64,000 bases of DNA from assembly GCF_013122565.1 (NCBI RefSeq), contig NZ_CP053258.1; one strand, written 5' to 3'. This document shows positions 2,157-62,200 of this stretch, one piece after another. This DNA is from Escherichia coli (GTDB lineage Bacteria; Pseudomonadota; Gammaproteobacteria; Enterobacterales; Enterobacteriaceae). The first letter of the stretch is position 1; each line of letters begins with the position of its first letter. Position numbers and translations under genes: made by a program. A model generated the notes under the pieces. It was not told the origin of the DNA. It worked only from the letters and a program-made list of their open reading frames with translations, and made no database searches.

Positions 2157-2939
2157 ATGAAAAAACTGGTGCTATCGCTCTCTCTGGTTCTGGCCTTCTC
2201 CAGTGCAACTGTGGCGTTTGCTGCGATTCCGCAAAACATCCGCATCGGTACCGACCCGACCTATGCGCCATTTGAATCAAAAAATTCACAAGGCGAACTG
2301 GTTGGTTTCGATATCGATCTGGCGAAGGAGTTGTGCAAGCGCATCAATACGCAATGTACGTTTGTCGAAAACCCGCTGGATGCGTTAATCCCGTCCTTAA
2401 AAGCGAAGAAGATTGACGCCATCATGTCATCGCTTTCCATTACGGAAAAACGTCAGCAAGAAATTGCCTTCACCGACAAACTGTACGCTGCCGATTCTCG
2501 TCTGGTGGTGGCGAAAAATTCCGACATTCAGCCGACAGTCGAATCGCTGAAAGGCAAGCGGGTAGGCGTATTGCAGGGCACCACCCAGGAGACGTTCGGT
2601 AACGAACACTGGGCACCAAAAGGCATTGAAATCGTCTCGTATCAGGGGCAGGACAACATTTATTCTGACCTGACTGCCGGACGTATTGATGCCGCGTTCC
2701 AGGATGAGGTCGCTGCCAGTGAAGGTTTCCTCAAACAACCCGTCGGTAAAGATTACAAATTCGGTGGCCCGTCTGTAAAAGATGAAAAACTGTTTGGCGT
2801 AGGGACCGGCATGGGCCTGCGTAAAGAAGATAACGAACTGCGCGAGGCACTGAACAAAGCCTTTGCCGAAATGCGCGCTGACGGTACTTACGAGAAATTA
2901 GCGAAAAAGTACTTCGATTTTGATGTTTATGGTGGTTAA
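2157..2939 (+). CDS. hisJ: Histidine periplasmic binding protein (260 aa)
   Basis: Signal peptide; highly similar to ArgT by eye; first gene of hisJQMP. Confidence 0.95.
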
Positions 2940-2964
2940 TCGCCATCGGTGAAAGAAAGCCCGC

Positions 2965-2987
2965 TCCCTTCGGGTAACCGGAGGGAG
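2965..2987 (+). other. Intercistronic stem-loop between hisJ and hisQ
   Basis: Inverted repeat CTCCCT ... AGGGAG read directly between the two genes. Confidence 0.4.
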
Positions 2988-3028
2988 ACAAGAGGCGGTA
3001 ATTCACCACACACGACAGGACAGGCAGC

Positions 3029-3715
3029 ATGTTGTATGGGTTTTCAGGTGTTATTTTACAGGGTGCGCTCGTCACGCTGGAGCTGGCTATCAGCTCTGTA
3101 GTGCTCGCTGTAATCATCGGTTTAATTGGCGCTGGCGGTAAGCTCTCGCAAAATCGGCTTTCGGGGCTGATTTTCGAAGGGTACACCACGCTGATTCGAG
3201 GCGTGCCGGACTTGGTGTTGATGCTGCTGATTTTCTACGGTTTGCAGATTGCACTAAACACGGTGACGGAGGCGATGGGCGTCGGGCAGATTGATATCGA
3301 TCCGATGGTCGCTGGTATTATTACTCTCGGTTTTATCTACGGTGCTTATTTTACCGAAACGTTCCGTGGTGCTTTTATGGCAGTGCCGAAAGGACATATA
3401 GAGGCGGCGACGGCGTTCGGTTTTACTCGTGGGCAAGTGTTTCGGCGGATCATGTTTCCGGCGATGATGCGTTACGCCCTGCCAGGCATTGGCAACAACT
3501 GGCAGGTGATCCTCAAATCTACCGCACTGGTTTCGTTACTCGGCCTGGAAGATGTGGTCAAAGCCACGCAGCTGGCAGGCAAAAGTACCTGGGAACCGTT
3601 CTATTTCGCCATCGTCTGTGGCGTGATTTACCTGGTTTTCACCACCGTTTCCAATGGTGTGCTGCTGTTCCTTGAGCGCCGCTACTCTGTGGGTGTGAAG
3701 AGGGCTGACCTGTGA
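3029..3715 (+). CDS. hisQ: Histidine ABC transporter permease (228 aa)
   Basis: Polytopic membrane protein; stop overlaps the hisM start (ATGA), indicating translational coupling. Confidence 0.95.
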   Translation: MLYGFSGVILQGALVTLELAISSVVLAVIIGLIGAGGKLSQNRLSGLIFEGYTTLIRGVPDLVLMLLIFYGLQIALNTVTEAMGVGQIDIDPMVAGIITLGFIYGAYFTETFRGAFMAVPKGHIEAATAFGFTRGQVFRRIMFPAMMRYALPGIGNNWQVILKSTALVSLLGLEDVVKATQLAGKSTWEPFYFAIVCGVIYLVFTTVSNGVLLFLERRYSVGVKRADL

Positions 3716-52828: not shown

Positions 52829-52937
52829 TTAACCCTCCGTTTCACTTCTCATTTCAGCCATTCCATTGCCGTTGATAAAGAGTTTATCTGTTAATCTGTA
52901 AATTGATGTGAAAACTCTTAGCAAACAGGATAATGCA

Positions 52938-53204
52938 ATGGAATGGCTGGTCAAAAAATCGTGCTGCAATAAACAAGATAACAGACATGTACTTATGCTC
53001 TGCGATGCTGGCGGCGCGATAAAAATGATCGCCGAAGTGAAGAGTGACTTCGCCGTGAAAGTGGGGGATTTACTCTCACCTTTGCAGAATGCGCTTTACT
53101 GTATTAATCGTGAAAAGCTGCATACGGTGAAAGTCCTCTCTGCAAGCTGTTATAGCCCCGATGAGTGGGAACGGCAGTGTAAAGTGGCAGGGAAAACTCA
53201 GTAA
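52938..53204 (+). CDS. pmrD: Signal-transduction connector protein PmrD (88 aa)
   Basis: MEWLVKKS... recognised as PmrD; located between menE and the arn operon. Confidence 0.85.
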
Positions 53205-53584
53205 CGTTGTTTTGTCGTGGGCAGGAAAATCAACATCAACCCGCTCATAATACAGGCTACTCCCAGTAGTGCTTTCAGCGAAAAAGTCCCTTCCCAGCCG
53301 GGAAGTACCATTGAAGCAATCCATACCAGCACATAACTCATACTGAGCAAGGCATAGGCTTTGCTTAGCGCAAGTTTATGTAGCGTTTTATACCAACAAA
53401 AAACGGAAAGCAGATAACCCAGCAGCCCGAGTAACAGTATCCGGGCATCCAGCCCAAAAGCTAACAGCGCCGCGATAAAATCCCATAAGTGCGTCATCGG
53501 CGGCAGATGACTCGCCGCAAAACCCAGGCTTAACTGCGCAGCTGAGGCGATAATGACGCTGAATAATCCCCACATCAGGCCCAT
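53198..53584 (-). CDS. arnF: Undecaprenyl-phosphate-L-Ara4N flippase subunit ArnF (128 aa)
   Basis: Small four-helix membrane protein; start overlaps the arnE stop. Confidence 0.85.
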
Positions 53585-53919
53585 TACACCGTACTCCCGA
53601 GGATCACAATGCCGCCAATAATGAACGCTACCCCACACCAGTGACGCAGCGATACCGGCTCGTGCCACAGTTTTACTGCAGCCAGCGTCACCCAGACAAA
53701 ATTCAGACTTAACATCGGGTAGGCAATGCCTACCGGTACGTTCTGCAAGACCAGCAGCCAGAGCACCATGGCAAGGCCAAGACAAGCCAGCGCCAGTCCC
53801 AGCCACAGCACGATATGTTTGCGCCGTTTGTTTATCGCCACAAAGCAGGTTGCCTGTTTCTGACACAACTGCCCGGCAACGCTAAGCAAGCTGGCAAAGA
53901 CTAATGTTAGCCAGATCAT
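53584..53919 (-). CDS. arnE: Undecaprenyl-phosphate-L-Ara4N flippase subunit ArnE (111 aa)
   Basis: Small membrane protein; overlaps the arnT stop. Confidence 0.85.
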
Positions 53920-55568
53920 TTGGGACGATACTGAATCAGCACCAGACGCTCCTGACGATCGATGGCATCTGCGGGCGGAATGGCGAGACTGTTGATATCT
54001 TCATCGCGTTCAACCGAAAGCACGAGTGTAATAATCCCCTCCTGACGGTGTTGATTAAGCCAGTTTGCGAACTCATCACCGCTGACAAATCTCCCTTTCG
54101 CATCCGGATAATTAAGGCCGTATTTCAACTCACCTGTCTGGCGATACATGATGATGTCATCGCGTTGCAGGCTCCATGCCAGACCTGCGGCAACACCGAC
54201 GCTATCAGTAAGAATATAGCGGCTTGGCTGAAGTGATTCTTGTGTCATCTCGACAAAAAATTGCGGATGTTTTCCTTCCATGACTCTGTCAGGAATTGAA
54301 AATCCTACCAGCAACGCCAGCCCCAGCGGGCAAAGCGCGGCAAAAGACCAGGTCTTTTCGACGTTTGTTAAGGTGTACCAGCCGAAAAATGCCCATAGCG
54401 AAAAAATCGACCAGGCACAAAAGACTTTATAGCTCTCGAAGGTTTGCCACACCGGCGTGTTCATTGGTCCCCAGGGGGAGACCACAAATGTGGCAATAAT
54501 GCCAGTGACGCCAAAAGCGATGTTAATCCAGCCATTAATCCGCAGCGCCAGAGGATTATTTTTTGCTGCCAGCAAAGCGTAATGCGCCAACAGCATTGCC
54601 AGAGGTGCAAAGCAAGAAAGAATATAGGTGGGCAATTTGCCTTTAGCGACGGAGAAAAACAGCAGCGGCATTATCGTCCAGCTCAACAAATAGACGGTTG
54701 CGGAATGCTTGCGGTTTTTCCAGCCTGTGTACAGTGCACCGGGGAGTAATCCCAGCCACGGCAGGCTACCGGCAATGATGACCGGCACGTAGTACCAGAA
54801 CGGAGCTCTATGTTGGGCATCATCCAGTGCAAAGCGTTGAATATGCTCAACCCAGAAAAAATAGTGCCAGAAGTCAGGCTCCCGCTGCGCTATAGCCAGT
54901 CCCCAGGGGAGAACCGTCAGTACGCAACTGATAACCGCCAGCCAGCCGTAAATAAAGAGATCTTTCCAGCGTTTTTGCGTCGCTACCCATGGCAGCACGC
55001 TTAATACCGGCACGGCAAGGGCGAGAAAACCTTTGGTCATCACCCCCATGCCGCAGGTGATTCCCAGCAGTAAAAATCCTGCGCTTTTGCCTTTCCACGT
55101 CTGTGCCTGCATTGCCAGCCAGAAGCTGCACATTCCCGCCACCAGCCAGAATGCAATAAACGGATCGAGCACGGCATAAGTGCCGATGGCATAGACAATA
55201 AACAATGAGAGATAAATTACTGTGGCGAGTAGAGCCAGACGTTTATCGCGCCATAAGCGCAGAGTAAACCAGGTCACCAGCGCGGCAGTTAACAGGGTCG
55301 CAAAGATAACGCCTGCCCGCACACCAAAGTTATTCGCGCCAAATAGCCATTGCCCAATGCTGTTAATCCAGTATCCGGCAATGGGTTTTTCGAAATAACG
55401 TAGCCCTAACAGATGGGGCACAATCCAGTCGCCGGATGCCAGCATTTCCCGACTGATTTCCGCATAACGCGTTTCATCGGGTTGCCAGAGCAGTCGCGTG
55501 CTGATCGGTAACAGGTAATAGCAGGCAATAAACGCGAAGAGGCCGATAAGGTAACGTACCGATTTCAT
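53916..55568 (-). CDS. arnT: Lipid A 4-amino-4-deoxy-L-arabinose transferase ArnT (550 aa)
   Basis: Polytopic glycosyltransferase recognised as ArnT. Confidence 0.9.
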
Positions 55569-56458
55569 CAGCGACTACCCGCAATTTGTTGGCAACCCAG
55601 CCAGCCTTCACGTCCGGCAATATTTCCGCGAACAACTTGTCCGAGCGGCAACGTCCCTGATAACAGTTCGCTTAAAGGGCAAAATGTCACGCCTTCCTGA
55701 GCTGCGCGTTTGAGGAGATCCACAAAATTATGCTGATAAGCGCAGCCTTCAACTTCGGCATGAATGGTATAAACCGGCGTGCCTTTATCTCGCAGGATGC
55801 GGTTGAGTAACCAACCGTTAAAATCTTCTGCTTTCACATCCCGACCAATCACTTCATCCCAGGTGGGTAAGGTCACCGGAATTTGCGCAGTGCCAGGGTT
55901 TCCTGATTCGAGCAGTGGACGGAACGGCATGGCCCCACGACAATCGCTGTTGTAGCGCAAATGGAACGCTTCTTTTGCTTCGATCACCTGCTGGTCGGCA
56001 CGCCAGCCCGCAGCGGCAGAACAGGTTACCGGTTGACCGATAATCTCTTCCAGAGTGCGAAGGCCGCGTGCAATATCGTCGATCATTGTTTGCCGATCCC
56101 AGTTACCGCTACGGGCTTGCCAGGCATGGTGATCCCAGGCGTGCAGGCCGACTTCGTGATGTTTAGCCGCTTCACGAATGATATCGGCATTGGCATGACC
56201 AATCTCTTTACCTGGCCAGGCCGTACCTGCCAGTAAAATATCCCAGCCATAAAGCGATGCCGCGTTTGAGCGCAGCATCTTCCACAAAAACTGTGGCTTC
56301 ACCAGTCGCCAGAGATGGCGGCCCATATTGTCCGGGCCGACGCTGAAAAAAATGCTGGCCTGAATATTATGCTTACTCAAGATTTCCAGCAGACGCGGCA
56401 CGCCTTCACGGGTGCCACGAAAGGTATCGACATCAATGCGTAAGCCTACTTTGGTCAT
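55568..56458 (-). CDS. arnD: Undecaprenyl-phosphate-L-Ara4FN deformylase ArnD (296 aa)
   Basis: Polysaccharide-deacetylase-like sequence; ATGA overlaps at both ends. Confidence 0.9.
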
Positions 56459-58436
56459 GATGGTTTATCCGTAAGATCAACGGTGCGCAGGAAGAAATCC
56501 AGCGTTTCGTCGATGGTTTCCTGCATATCAATTTTCGGCTCCCAGTCCAGGCAGCGGTGGGCATTGCGGATGCTCGGTTTACGATGCTCTACGTCCTGAT
56601 ATCCTTTTCCGTAGTAGCTGCTACTTTCGACAACGCGAAAGCCCGCAAACGGTGGGAAATGATGGCGCAGCGGATGTTTTTCGAAGCTCGCCAGCAGCAT
56701 CTCGCCCAGTTCCTCAATGCTCGCTTCGTTCTCAGGATTGCCAATGTTGATAATTTCGCCGTCGCAGCGATTTCCCGCATTTTCGATAATGCGGTATAAC
56801 GCCTCGATACCATCGCGAATATCAGTAAAGCAGCGTTTTTGTTTTCCGCCATCAATCAGCTTAATCGGTGAACCTTCTACCAGATTGAGAATGAGTTGCG
56901 TAATCGCGCGGGAGCTGCCAATTCGCGCTGCATTAAGGTTATCCAGTCGTGGTCCCATCCAGTTAAACGGGCGGAAGAGGGTGAACTGTAAACCCTCTTT
57001 TTCGCCATAGGCCCAGATAACCCGATCAAGTAATTGTTTTGACACCGAATAAATCCAGCGTGGTTTATTCACCGGGCCGACGATTAAATTAGAATGGTCC
57101 TCATCGAAGTATTTATCGCTACACATCCCATAAACTTCTGAAGTTGATGGGAAGATGATTCGCTTACGGTACTTCACGCAGTAGCGGATAATGCGCAGAT
57201 TCTCTTCAAAATCGAGTTCAAATACGCGCAGCGGGTTGCGGGTATATTCAATCGGCGTGGCTATCGCCACCAGCGGCAAGACGACATCACATTTTTTGAC
57301 GTGATACTCAATCCATTCGGAATGAATACTGATATCGCCTTCGACAAAGTGAAAATGCGGATGATTCAGAAAACGGCTTATCGCATCGCTGCCAATATCC
57401 AGACCGTAAACTTCATAATGATCTTCGCGCAGCAGGCGTTCTGTCAGATGGTTGCCAATAAAGCCATTTACCCCGAGGATGAGTACCCGGGTACGGCGTC
57501 GGGCGGCACAGGCAGGCTGGCTATTCAAGCGTGAACCTTGCACCAGGCCCAGCGTCTGCGCTAATTGCGAGCCCTGCATAGTAATGCCGTCGCCCGCCTG
57601 TCCGGTGACGATTTCCAGCGCGCCATCGCCACAGGCAATCAGCAGTGGCGCAACAGAAATCACGCTCCCCGGCTGCGCTGCGGATGTATGAGGATGTACG
57701 CGTGACGACCAGACGGTGAATTTCTGATTGCCAGCATAGCTGAAGGCACCCGGCCACGGATCGGCAACGGCGCGGACCATGTTATGCAATACGGCTGCCG
57801 GTTTGTGCCACTCGAGGAAGCTATCTTCTGGTGCTCTGCGACCAAAACAGGTGGCTTCGTTCTCGCGTTGGGCGATTTCCAGAATATTAACGTGTTTAAT
57901 GGCGGGTAATGTCTGTTCCAGTAGCTGGCGCGCGGCATGGCACAATTTATGATGCAGCGTAATAGCGATATCGTCTGGCGCAATGGCAATGCGCAGTTGC
58001 GCCACAATGGCCCCGGCATCGGCACGTGTCACCATTCGGTGCAATGTAACGCCCGTTTCCGTTTCACCGTTCACCAGCACCCAGTTCAGCGGCGCGCGAC
58101 CACGATATTTTGGTAACAGCGAACCATGCAGATTAAATGCACCTGCGGGAGCGAGCTGCAAAATTTCGTCGCAAATAAGATGGCGATAATAAAAAGAGAA
58201 AATCACATCTGGCGACAGTTGGGCAATGCGTTCCACCCACAGCGGATGATTAACGTCATCCGGCGCATAAACCGGAATGCCTCTTTCCGCCGCCAGACGA
58301 GCCACCGAACCATAAAAGGCTTTTTCACCGGGATTATCGGTATGGGTAAAAATGGCGCTAATTTCGTAACCGGCAGCCAGCAGGGCTTCAATACCGAGGC
58401 ATCCCATATCGTGGTAGGCAAAAACGACGGTTTTCA

Positions 58437-58437
<1 letters not shown>
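56455..58437 (-). CDS. arnA: Bifunctional UDP-glucuronate decarboxylase / UDP-Ara4N formyltransferase ArnA (660 aa)
   Basis: N-terminal formyltransferase half and C-terminal SDR half with [10 protein letters not shown]. Confidence 0.95.
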
Positions 58438-59408
<971 letters not shown>

Positions 59409-60566
59409 TTATTGTCCTGCGAGTTGCTGAAGGGCTGTGATGACACGGTCGGCATCGGCGGTGGTCATATCCGGGAACAGCGGCAAAGAACAGATGCGTT
59501 CGCTATTCCATTCGGTATTCGGTAACGACAGCGTGGGAAAACGCTCGCGATAATATTTTTGTGTGTGAGCGGCGCGGAAATGTAACCCGGTACCAATGCC
59601 TCTTTCTTTTAACGCTTCCATCAACGCATTTCGACTGATACCACAACGTTGTTCATCGACACGAATAATAAACAGATGCCAGGCGTGAACGTGCGGCCAG
59701 GCGGGAAGGCTTAATGGCTGAAAGGGGAGAGCTGCCAGTGCTTGCTGATATTGCAGGGCAATTTCGCGCCGACGGGTGTTGAGGTACTCTAATTTGGCTA
59801 ACTGTGTCATGGCAATCGCGGCGTTAATATCGGTCAGATTGTACTTATAGCCCGGCGTTAAGACTTCAGCCTGCGGTGCACGGCCCCAGGTTTGTCTGTC
59901 ATAGGCATCGACACCCAGACCGTGAAATTTCAACATCCGTAGCTGGCGGGCAAGATTTTCATTATCAGTAACAATCAGGCCACCTTCCGCACAGGTAATA
60001 TTTTTGATGGCGTGAAACGAAAAAATAGCGGTACCTTTTGCTCCAATATGTCGCCCTTTGTAATACGTACCGACGGCATGGGCTGCATCTTCGATAACTG
60101 CGATGCCGTAACGTTCGCCAAGGGCGCGAATGGCGTCAATATCTGCTGGCGCACCGGCATAATGCACCGGAATGATGGCTTTAGTGCGTGGCGTAATGGC
60201 TGACTCGATAGCTTCAGGCGTGACCATCAGCGTATCGCGGTCGACATCCACCATTACCGGCGTTGCACCCAACAAGGAGATCATATTGAGAGTTGAAACC
60301 CAGGTCAGGGAAGGCGTAATCACTTCATCACCCTTGCCAATTTCCAACGCCATTAGCGTGATATGCATTCCGGCGGTGGCTGAACTGACCGCGATGGCAT
60401 GCTGATTTCCCGTCAACTGGCAAAAGGCTTGCTCAAGCGCCTGATTCTTCGGACCGGTTGTGATCCAACCGGATTCGAGAACCTCTTTAACTGCAGCGAG
60501 TTCCTCCACGCCCATTGCTGGTCGCGAAAAAGGCAAAAATTCTGACATTGCTTTTCCTTCCGCCAT
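59409..60566 (-). CDS. arnB: UDP-L-Ara4O aminotransferase ArnB (385 aa from this ATG)
   Basis: PLP aminotransferase; first ATG is 60566 (MAEGK...); the track ORF begins at GTG 60581, and ATG 60548 with a GGAAGG Shine-Dalgarno is an alternative. Confidence 0.85.
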
Positions 60567-60646
60567 TGAATACCTGTCCACTTATATTTGCTATAAAGAG
60601 TGTTGTGTATATTTTGCCATTTGGAGCGAAATTTTAAGGATAGAAT

Positions 60647-60663
60647 ATTAACTTAACCTTAAG
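60647..60663 (-). promoter_or_regulatory. Candidate PmrA box upstream of arnB
   Basis: Minus-strand CTTAAG-GTTAA-GTTAAT resembles the YTTAAK-N5-YTTAAK PmrA/BasR direct repeat, about 80-100 bp upstream of arnB. Confidence 0.5.
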
Positions 60664-60855
60664 AAACTAATATTAGACGTAAATATTGAAATTTTTATAT
60701 TTTTTCTTATTTAGGCTTTGCATTTGGCAAAATTTTGAGGCATTTTGCCGACATCGTAGGATTTTTAATATTACACCAACTGCTAATTATCGCCAGAAAT
60801 GTCGCTCAATTTCACGGTAATTGTCTGGTTGCGCTTGTCTATAGGTGGAGTTTAC

Positions 60856-61458
60856 GTGTTAGCTTTTTGCCGCTCATCATTGAAGTCAAAAAAATATTTC
60901 ATCATTTTACTGGCGCTCGCTGCAATTGCCGGACTGGGTACTCATGCCGCCTGGAGTAGCAATGGTTTGCCACGTATCGACAATAAAACATTGGCCAGAC
61001 TGGCACAGCAGCACCCGGTTGTCGTTTTGTTTCGCCATGCTGAACGTTGCGATCGTTCAACTAATCAATGCTTGTCAGATAAAACAGGTATTACGGTCAA
61101 AGGTACCCAGGATGCCCGTGAACTGGGCAACGCTTTTAGTGCTGATATCCCTGATTTCGATCTTTATTCCAGTAATACCGTCCGGACCATTCAGTCGGCG
61201 ACATGGTTTTCAGCGGGTAAAAAGCTGACGGTAGATAAACGACTTCTTCAGTGCGGTAATGAGATTTATAGTGCAATTAAGGACTTACAAAGCAAAGCGC
61301 CTGATAAAAATATCGTTATTTTCACCCATAATCATTGCCTGACATATATTGCTAAAGATAAGCGTGATGCGACATTTAAACCCGATTATCTGGATGGTTT
61401 AGTCATGCATGTGGAAAAAGGCAAAGTTTATCTGGATGGGGAATTCGTTAATCAATAA
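60856..61458 (+). CDS. ais: LPS core heptose(II)-phosphate phosphatase Ais/PmrG (200 aa)
   Basis: Histidine-phosphatase RHAER motif; likely GTG start within the longer track ORF; divergent from arnB. Confidence 0.8.
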
Positions 61459-61922: not shown

Positions 61923-62200
61923 AGGGGTATTCCTTATAAATAAAAAGAAACCATGAGAATACGGTAACTCAGAAATATGTGAAAGTGACAGTAATCTCTT
62001 TTGCGATGATAACTGCACTTATTATTATTTTTGTGTGTATCGGTAAAGTGTGTTTATTTTTTCGGCGTTTAATTATTTAAGAAGTATTTAGTTACAATAA
62101 GTGACTAGATCCCTTTTTTCGCTCATTGAATCCTCTGTGCCAGGCAGTACAATCCCGCAGCTTTGGGAATTTTGATTAATTGCTTGTGGGAAAGGGGATA

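Follow-up and report, generated by a model that had tools for sequence, protein, structure and literature searches.

The 17-bp direct repeat CTTAAG-GTTAA-GTTAAT between arnB and ais is, with a probability that we put at about 0.9, the site from which PmrA (BasR) activates the arnBCADTEF promoter of Escherichia coli. Its arrangement is a promoter geometry of the PmrA/PhoB type, where the binding site of the activator stands in for a -35 element. We analysed it in a stretch of 64,000 nucleotides of E. coli chromosomal DNA (contig NZ_CP053258.1; hereafter, the window is this whole stretch). The site is the switch for the L-Ara4N modification of lipid A, a main route to polymyxin/colistin resistance in Enterobacteriaceae, which makes it clinically relevant, though textbook material. 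The box, its role and the PmrA-dependent expression of arnB are already published, and nothing in them is new; the check shows that a real, functional regulatory element was recognised from sequence alone.

Gene neighbourhood and the start of arnB

The gene annotation was transferred from NZ_CP033401.1, which is identical to the window over 60400-61000, and its coordinates agree with the list of open reading frames. For the first 50 kb of the window, where indels shift the coordinates, this record was used for gene content and order only. A 601-bp probe across the site is 100% identical to the same record and matches 5418 of the 5426 complete E. coli genomes. The genes of the neighbourhood are as follows.

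Up to 52828, plus strand: menE (transferred annotation)
52938-53204, plus strand: pmrD, connector protein gene (NCBIfam equivalog NF011994, 176.9 bits against a cut-off of 96)
53198-53584, minus strand: arnF (annotation, open reading frame match)
53584-53919, minus strand: arnE (annotation, open reading frame match)
53916-55568, minus strand: arnT (annotation, open reading frame match)
55568-56458, minus strand: arnD (annotation, open reading frame match)
56455-58437, minus strand: arnA (annotation, open reading frame match)
58437-59405, minus strand: arnC (annotation, open reading frame match)
59409-60548, minus strand: arnB (pbgP/pmrH), UDP-4-amino-4-deoxy-L-arabinose aminotransferase (NCBIfam equivalog NF008658, 736.5 bits against a cut-off of 631)
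60856-61458, plus strand: ais (pmrG homologue), LPS core heptose(II)-phosphate phosphatase, GTG start (NCBIfam subfamily model NF011945, 391.7 bits against a cut-off of 142)
Downstream of ais: nudI, yfaZ and yfaY (annotation)

The first gene, arnB, is followed on the same strand by arnC, arnA, arnD, arnT, arnE and arnF, and together they are the arnBCADTEF (pbgPE) L-Ara4N operon. An earlier note on this DNA had named arnB and ais as the genes flanking the repeat, and both assignments are borne out by the identical annotated record and by NCBIfam scores above the cut-off. On the NCBIfam PmrG equivalog model, Ais scores 145.8 bits, under the cut-off of 170, as against 391.7 bits on the broader subfamily model; by this criterion, E. 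coli Ais and Salmonella PmrG are related but not equivalent.

The intergenic region between arnB and ais spans 60549-60855 (307 bp). The earlier note had located it correctly but had given it an extent of about 290 bp, with a left edge at 60567 that corresponds to an in-frame ATG at 60566, upstream of the annotated start codon. This upstream ATG is disfavoured as the start of arnB: at the equivalent position a stop codon comes directly after it in Salmonella arizonae (ATGGCTTAA) and the Citrobacter freundii group (ATGGCTTGA), and it has no Shine-Dalgarno sequence, whereas AAGGAA precedes the ATG at 60548. The NCBIfam ArnB equivalog model also aligns from residue 1 of the 379-aa product starting at 60548, and these three lines of evidence favour that ATG as the true start codon. 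In E. coli, E. whittamii, S. diarizonae and Citrobacter R56, the upstream ATG is in frame with arnB and no stop codon intervenes.

Sequence of the repeat and its fit to the PmrA consensus

The minus strand at 60647-60663, read directly, is CTTAAGGTTAAGTTAAT. It is made of the half-sites CTTAAG (60663..60658) and GTTAAT (60652..60647) on either side of a 5-bp spacer, GTTAA (60657..60653), and the two hexamers form a direct repeat in an 11-bp register, counted from start to start. The elements of the intergenic region are listed below.

60663..60647, minus strand: probable PmrA/BasR box CTTAAG-GTTAA-GTTAAT (direct sequence reading and conservation)
60636..60631, minus strand: putative -10 element of arnB, TAAAAT (downstream of the box, at a distance of exactly 10 bp)
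60622..60626 (near 60624), minus strand: predicted arnB transcription start (from the position of the -10 hexamer)
60549..60621, minus strand: arnB 5' leader (alignment, invariant columns)
60664..60716, no strand: AT-rich tract upstream of the box (sequence; poorly conserved between genera)
60734..60762, plus strand: candidate ais promoter of low confidence, with TTGAGG at 60735-60740, 16 bp, and TAGGAT at 60757-60762 (conserved block)

The PmrA box is described as two hexamers of consensus YTTAAK, also written XTTAAY, that are 5 nt apart (PMC10729948, PMC10570014). Of the 12 consensus positions in YTTAAK-N5-YTTAAK, 11 fit the repeat, the deviation being a G at position 1 of half-site 2, and both half-sites contain TTAA and hence the TAA core of a pmra-box. 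The footprinted box of Klebsiella pneumoniae has itself an imperfect second half-site, CCTAAG, so the G of GTTAAT is inside the known range (PMC3973317). Because the upstream half-site CTTAAG is palindromic, the orientation of the box is set by GTTAAT.

The chance expectation was estimated with consensus patterns, which approximate a scan with a validated position weight matrix. With these, the relaxed pattern YTTAAK-N5-KTTAAK, which is tailored to the site, has a single match in the 64 kb against 0.06 expected, and at least one match in 6 of 100 shuffles. The strict published consensus with at most one mismatch has 8 matches in the window against 3.0 expected; it is not rare there, which gives it poor specificity as a test. 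Taken on its own, the sequence match is only moderately unlikely by chance and is weak evidence, and the case for the box is therefore made by its position and its conservation.

One of the strict-consensus matches with one mismatch, TTTAAG-AAGTA-TTTAGT (62076-62092, plus strand), falls between nudI and yfaZ, 109 bp upstream of the latter. Since its mismatch disrupts the TAA core of the second half-site, this match is probably there by chance.

Conservation of the box

We aligned the region upstream of arnB in five taxa (E. coli, E. whittamii, two Salmonella enterica subspecies and Citrobacter sp. R56). At the orthologous arnB promoter, the E. coli box lines up with those of Salmonella and Citrobacter, and 15 of its 17 columns are invariant, against 81 of 307 in the whole intergenic region. 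It is the top-ranked 17-mer for conservation in this region (hypergeometric P = 6e-8).

The box is also almost invariant within the species. The 31-mer centred on it is kept in 5375 of the 5426 complete E. coli genomes, whereas a control 31-mer 85 bp off (60725-60755) is kept in just 3051 of them (56%). We also compared the intergenic region with that of three E. coli strains, leaving out FDAARGOS_1255, which is misregistered by an indel. ER1821R, of K-12 identity, differs from the window at 2 of the 307 positions, an O157:H7 strain at 3 and EC65 at 9, with zero variants within 60631-60663 in any of the three; both differences of ER1821R are far from the box.

Beyond these genera, the arnB boxes of Erwinia and Pantoea (CTTAAT-N5-CCTAAG) have the same half-sites as the footprinted box of K. 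pneumoniae. No box scoring at least 10/12 was found upstream of arnB in the Mangrovitalea, Photorhabdus, Pectobacterium and Izhakiella loci examined.

Four loci of Buttiauxella spp. carry two separate PmrA-box-like repeats upstream of arnB. The far-upstream one is CTTAATTTAACCTTAAT; the second, CTTAATATTG..CTAAG, is about 158 bp from the reference codon and mostly has TAnnnT at +10. The pair recalls the two-site arrangement of K. pneumoniae.

In a human faecal isolate, E. coli 2017-19-1CC (NZ_AP027854.1), the corresponding interval (2176-3126 of the locus) has an IS1 element between menE and ais. This isolate lacks pmrD, all of the arn operon and the box itself, and its intergenic remnant corresponds only to 60730-60855 of the window.

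Geometry of the arnB promoter and its leader

A hexamer of the form TAnnnT follows the box at exactly 10 bp, and in E. coli it is the putative -10 element TAAAAT. The same succession of box, 10 bp and TAnnnT stands upstream of arnB in each of the Escherichia, Salmonella and Citrobacter species retrieved, in all Erwinia and Pantoea loci retrieved and in some Buttiauxella species. This hexamer was absent from the search pattern used to find the boxes. The box spans about -39 to -23 relative to the predicted start; it takes the place of the -35 element and faces arnB. A scan of 60450-60950 for sigma-70 consensus promoters gave 2 weak sites against 1.3 expected, none of them at the box. The lack of a canonical sigma-70 promoter at the box is expected of an activator-dependent promoter and is uninformative by itself.

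Given a start near 60624, which we infer from the position of the -10 hexamer, the arnB leader would be about 75 nt long. It contains the Shine-Dalgarno sequence AAGGAA (60559..60554) and a conserved pentamer, ATGGC (60566..60562). An Rfam scan of 60400-61000 at E <= 1 returned zero matches, and hence no known leader RNA or sRNA in that interval. The pentamer (60562-60566, minus strand) is invariant in the five taxa and contains the start codon of the older, longer version of arnB; it might function as a mini-ORF or as an element of the leader.

On the other side of the box, the AT-rich tract at 60664..60716 may serve as an upstream region of the UP-like or curved kind. It includes a perfect palindrome of 10 bp, CTAATATTAG (60667-60676), which lies 4 bp upstream of the box and is not conserved outside E. 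coli. At the position of this palindrome, Salmonella and Citrobacter have a third hexamer (CTTAAT/CTTAAG), 9 bp upstream of half-site 1.

Comparison with known promoters

The comparison with the Salmonella pbgP promoter, which the earlier note had proposed as a check, agrees with the box on several counts. Salmonella enterica pbgP (pmrH/arnB) belongs to the same gene pair, arnB with a divergent pmrG/ais, and the box lies at the same distance from the reference codon (-123/-124 against -124). The Salmonella box, CTTAAT-GTTAA-TTTAAT, has the identical spacer and the TAnnnT hexamer 10 bp downstream. It differs from the E. coli box in two half-site bases and is a perfect match to the consensus. 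The two also differ in that PmrD robustly connects PhoPQ to PmrAB in Salmonella.

Box 1 of K. pneumoniae pbgP, CTTAAT-ATTAT-CCTAAG, was footprinted and its structure solved with PmrA and RNA polymerase (PMC3973317, PMC10570014). As in E. coli, its hexamers are head-to-tail and 5 bp apart, the first half-site being strong and the second imperfect; it too takes the place of the -35 element and has an AT-rich tract upstream of it. In K. pneumoniae, this AT-rich segment was part of the scaffold used for cryo-EM of PmrA (PMC10570014). Unlike the E. coli promoter, K. pneumoniae pbgP carries a PhoP box as well, and a second promoter that depends on PhoP, in a feedforward connector loop. No PhoP box is reported in the pbgP promoter of E. 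coli, Shigella or Salmonella (bioRxiv 10.1101/2020.05.05.080051).

The geometry is also that of the pho box promoters of PhoB, which have an activator of the OmpR/PhoB family and a direct repeat with 11-bp periodicity, with another recognition sequence and another regulator. The distance between the pho box and the -10 hexamer is 10 bp. In these promoters too, the -35 hexamer is replaced and region 4 of sigma-70 is contacted (PMC10570014).

Proposed mechanism

Structural work has shown that the pmra-box overlaps the -35 element in pbgP, ugd and pmrCAB, and that head-to-tail DNA-binding domains read the TAA cores; the contacts of PmrA to sigma-70 region 4, the beta flap and beta' offset a weak contact between sigma-4 and DNA (PMC10570014). 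By homology with these complexes, binding and activation at the E. coli site would proceed as follows. PmrB would sense Fe3+, Al3+ or mild acid, with a possible further input from PhoPQ through PmrD, which would shield PmrA-P from dephosphorylation. A phosphorylated PmrA dimer would then sit head-to-tail on CTTAAG and GTTAAT, reading their TAA cores, at the -35 position (about -39 to -23) and 10 bp upstream of the -10 hexamer TAAAAT; we infer that BasR itself occupies this copy of the box. Bound PmrA would touch region 4 of sigma-70 and the beta flap, recruiting RNA polymerase to a promoter without a -35 element of its own, in a class II activation of the PhoB type. Transcription would run from near 60624 through arnB to arnF, leading to the addition of 4-amino-4-deoxy-L-arabinose to lipid A.

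Published evidence in E. coli

The identification of these 17 letters as a PmrA/BasR box, made in the earlier note, holds with its one deviation from the consensus and has a precedent: the same 17-mer is present in an EMSA probe from the arn promoter of an EPEC strain, where it was labelled in 2023 as the PmrA consensus 'with a slight modification', and a FIMO match is reported for arnB (PMC10729948). As for function, the response of the reporter P_arnB-gfp to iron and low pH in MG1655 depends on pmrA, phoP and pmrD (bioRxiv 10.1101/2020.05.05.080051). The earlier note had taken the lack of PmrA-dependent arnB expression as what would speak against the box. The dependence of this reporter on pmrA, together with the near-identity of ER1821R to the window, favours the box instead.

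The inclusion of both flanking genes in the PmrA regulon also agrees with the literature, in which pbgP serves as a PmrA-activated gene in E. coli and ais/pmrG is PmrA-activated as well. In serum, the arn operon, ais, ugd, yjdB and basSR drop together (PMC4145685). Regarding binding assays on this exact DNA, the literature yielded only an EMSA with QseB-P on a 60-bp fragment (PMC10729948).

The divergent gene ais

The earlier note had described the region as a control region for both divergent genes. This stands for arnB, for which the box is suitably placed and oriented, and is uncertain for ais, whose start codon is 193 bp from the box. The side of ais has its own conserved block, AGGCATTTT (60738-60746), which is invariant in the five taxa and overlaps the candidate ais promoter. 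Salmonella, E. whittamii and Citrobacter carry a PmrA-like half-site, YTTAAG, at the place where E. coli reads TTTGAG (60734-60739). The 31-mer around the block (60725-60755) is the one kept in just 56% of the complete E. coli genomes. Polymorphisms within E. coli fall at 60750, 60751 and 60756, in the spacer of the putative promoter.

The box could nevertheless be one bidirectional operator that also mediates the activation of ais by PmrA from a distance, which we regard as possible but unlikely. The upstream half-site is palindromic and the box holds three TTAA cores; PmrA activates ais/pmrG in E. coli, and in serum the gene drops along with the arn operon and basSR (PMC4145685). Scans of 60549-60855 with the tailored and the strict consensus gave no second full PmrA box that could serve ais, only a region with a degenerate half-site, the ais-side YTTAAG of other genera being TTTGAG in E. 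coli. Against this, the box is 193 bp from the ais start codon and some 95-105 bp upstream of the candidate ais -10 hexamer, which does not fit the geometry described for PmrA, with a box in the place of the -35 element (PMC10570014). Read on the plus strand, moreover, the second half-site is ATTAAC, with 2 mismatches, and the separate block at 60738-60746 marks an independent promoter region for ais.

An extension of this idea would make the box an integration point for two regulators and two directions, with PmrA and QseB competing for or sharing its three TTAA cores. As E. coli has lost the ais-side YTTAAG half-site, ais would then rely on the distant box. We find this improbable; if true, it would be a rewiring of a divergent gene within the genus.

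QseB and chance

The reading of the box as an activator site of PmrA has also to be weighed against a published proposal that gives PmrA the opposite role. Its authors see PmrA as a repressor rather than an activator at this site (PMC10729948): the box would be mainly a target of QseB, a paralogue of PmrA, or a site from which PmrA blocks RNA polymerase, and QseB phosphorylated by PmrB would activate arn. Phosphorylated QseB indeed shifts the 60-bp fragment that contains the box, and a double mutant of pmrA and qseC shows constitutively raised expression of arnB and eptA (PMC10729948). Yet the induction of P_arnB-gfp in MG1655 needs pmrA (bioRxiv 10.1101/2020.05.05.080051), work on E. coli treats pbgP as a gene activated by PmrA, and the structures show PmrA activating from such a geometry (PMC10570014). 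The QseB consensus is, in addition, not enriched in the window (36 matches against 32.6 expected at no more than 2 mismatches), and its best intergenic match, at 60778-60793, falls outside the EMSA probe. We hold this explanation to be very improbable, and retain the box as the site of activation by PmrA. The match at 60778-60793 (minus strand) is GCGATAATTAGCAGTT, one mismatch from the published QseB consensus.

That the repeat is a chance product of AT-rich intergenic DNA with TTAA repeats and has no regulatory role would agree with the base composition of the region and with the 8 strict-consensus matches at one mismatch where 3 are expected, but it is effectively refuted by the conservation data, since conservation between genera peaks at the box and hardly any E. 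coli genome departs from it, and is contradicted further by the fixed 10-bp spacing to the -10 hexamer across families and by the published reporter and expression data.

The connector gene pmrD

The earlier note had placed pmrD at the far end of the arn operon, where it is annotated (52938-53204), and its product, with a score above the cut-off of NF011994, is a PmrD orthologue. The note's further description of the locus as a unit with its own connector is right as to the presence of the gene. It needs one qualification as to the operon: pmrD is convergent with arnF, the 3' ends of the two overlap by 7 bp, and the gene is separate from the operon, with a promoter of its own. The connector activity of PmrD in E. 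coli is conditional, and the literature is mixed. In some E. coli studies, the connection of PhoPQ to PmrAB through PmrD is absent because PmrB is a strong phosphatase; E. coli PmrD does connect the two once iron or low pH stimulates PmrB as well (bioRxiv 10.1101/2020.05.05.080051).

Upstream of pmrD, a repeat is followed by 12 bp and then by TAAATT (within 52870-52904, plus strand). The repeat, CGTTGA-TAAAG-AGTTTA (52870-52886, plus strand), is a candidate PhoP box with 3 deviations from the consensus. The arrangement at 52870-52904 would fit a PhoP-activated promoter of pmrD, and the pmrD gene of E. coli is PhoP-activated according to the literature.
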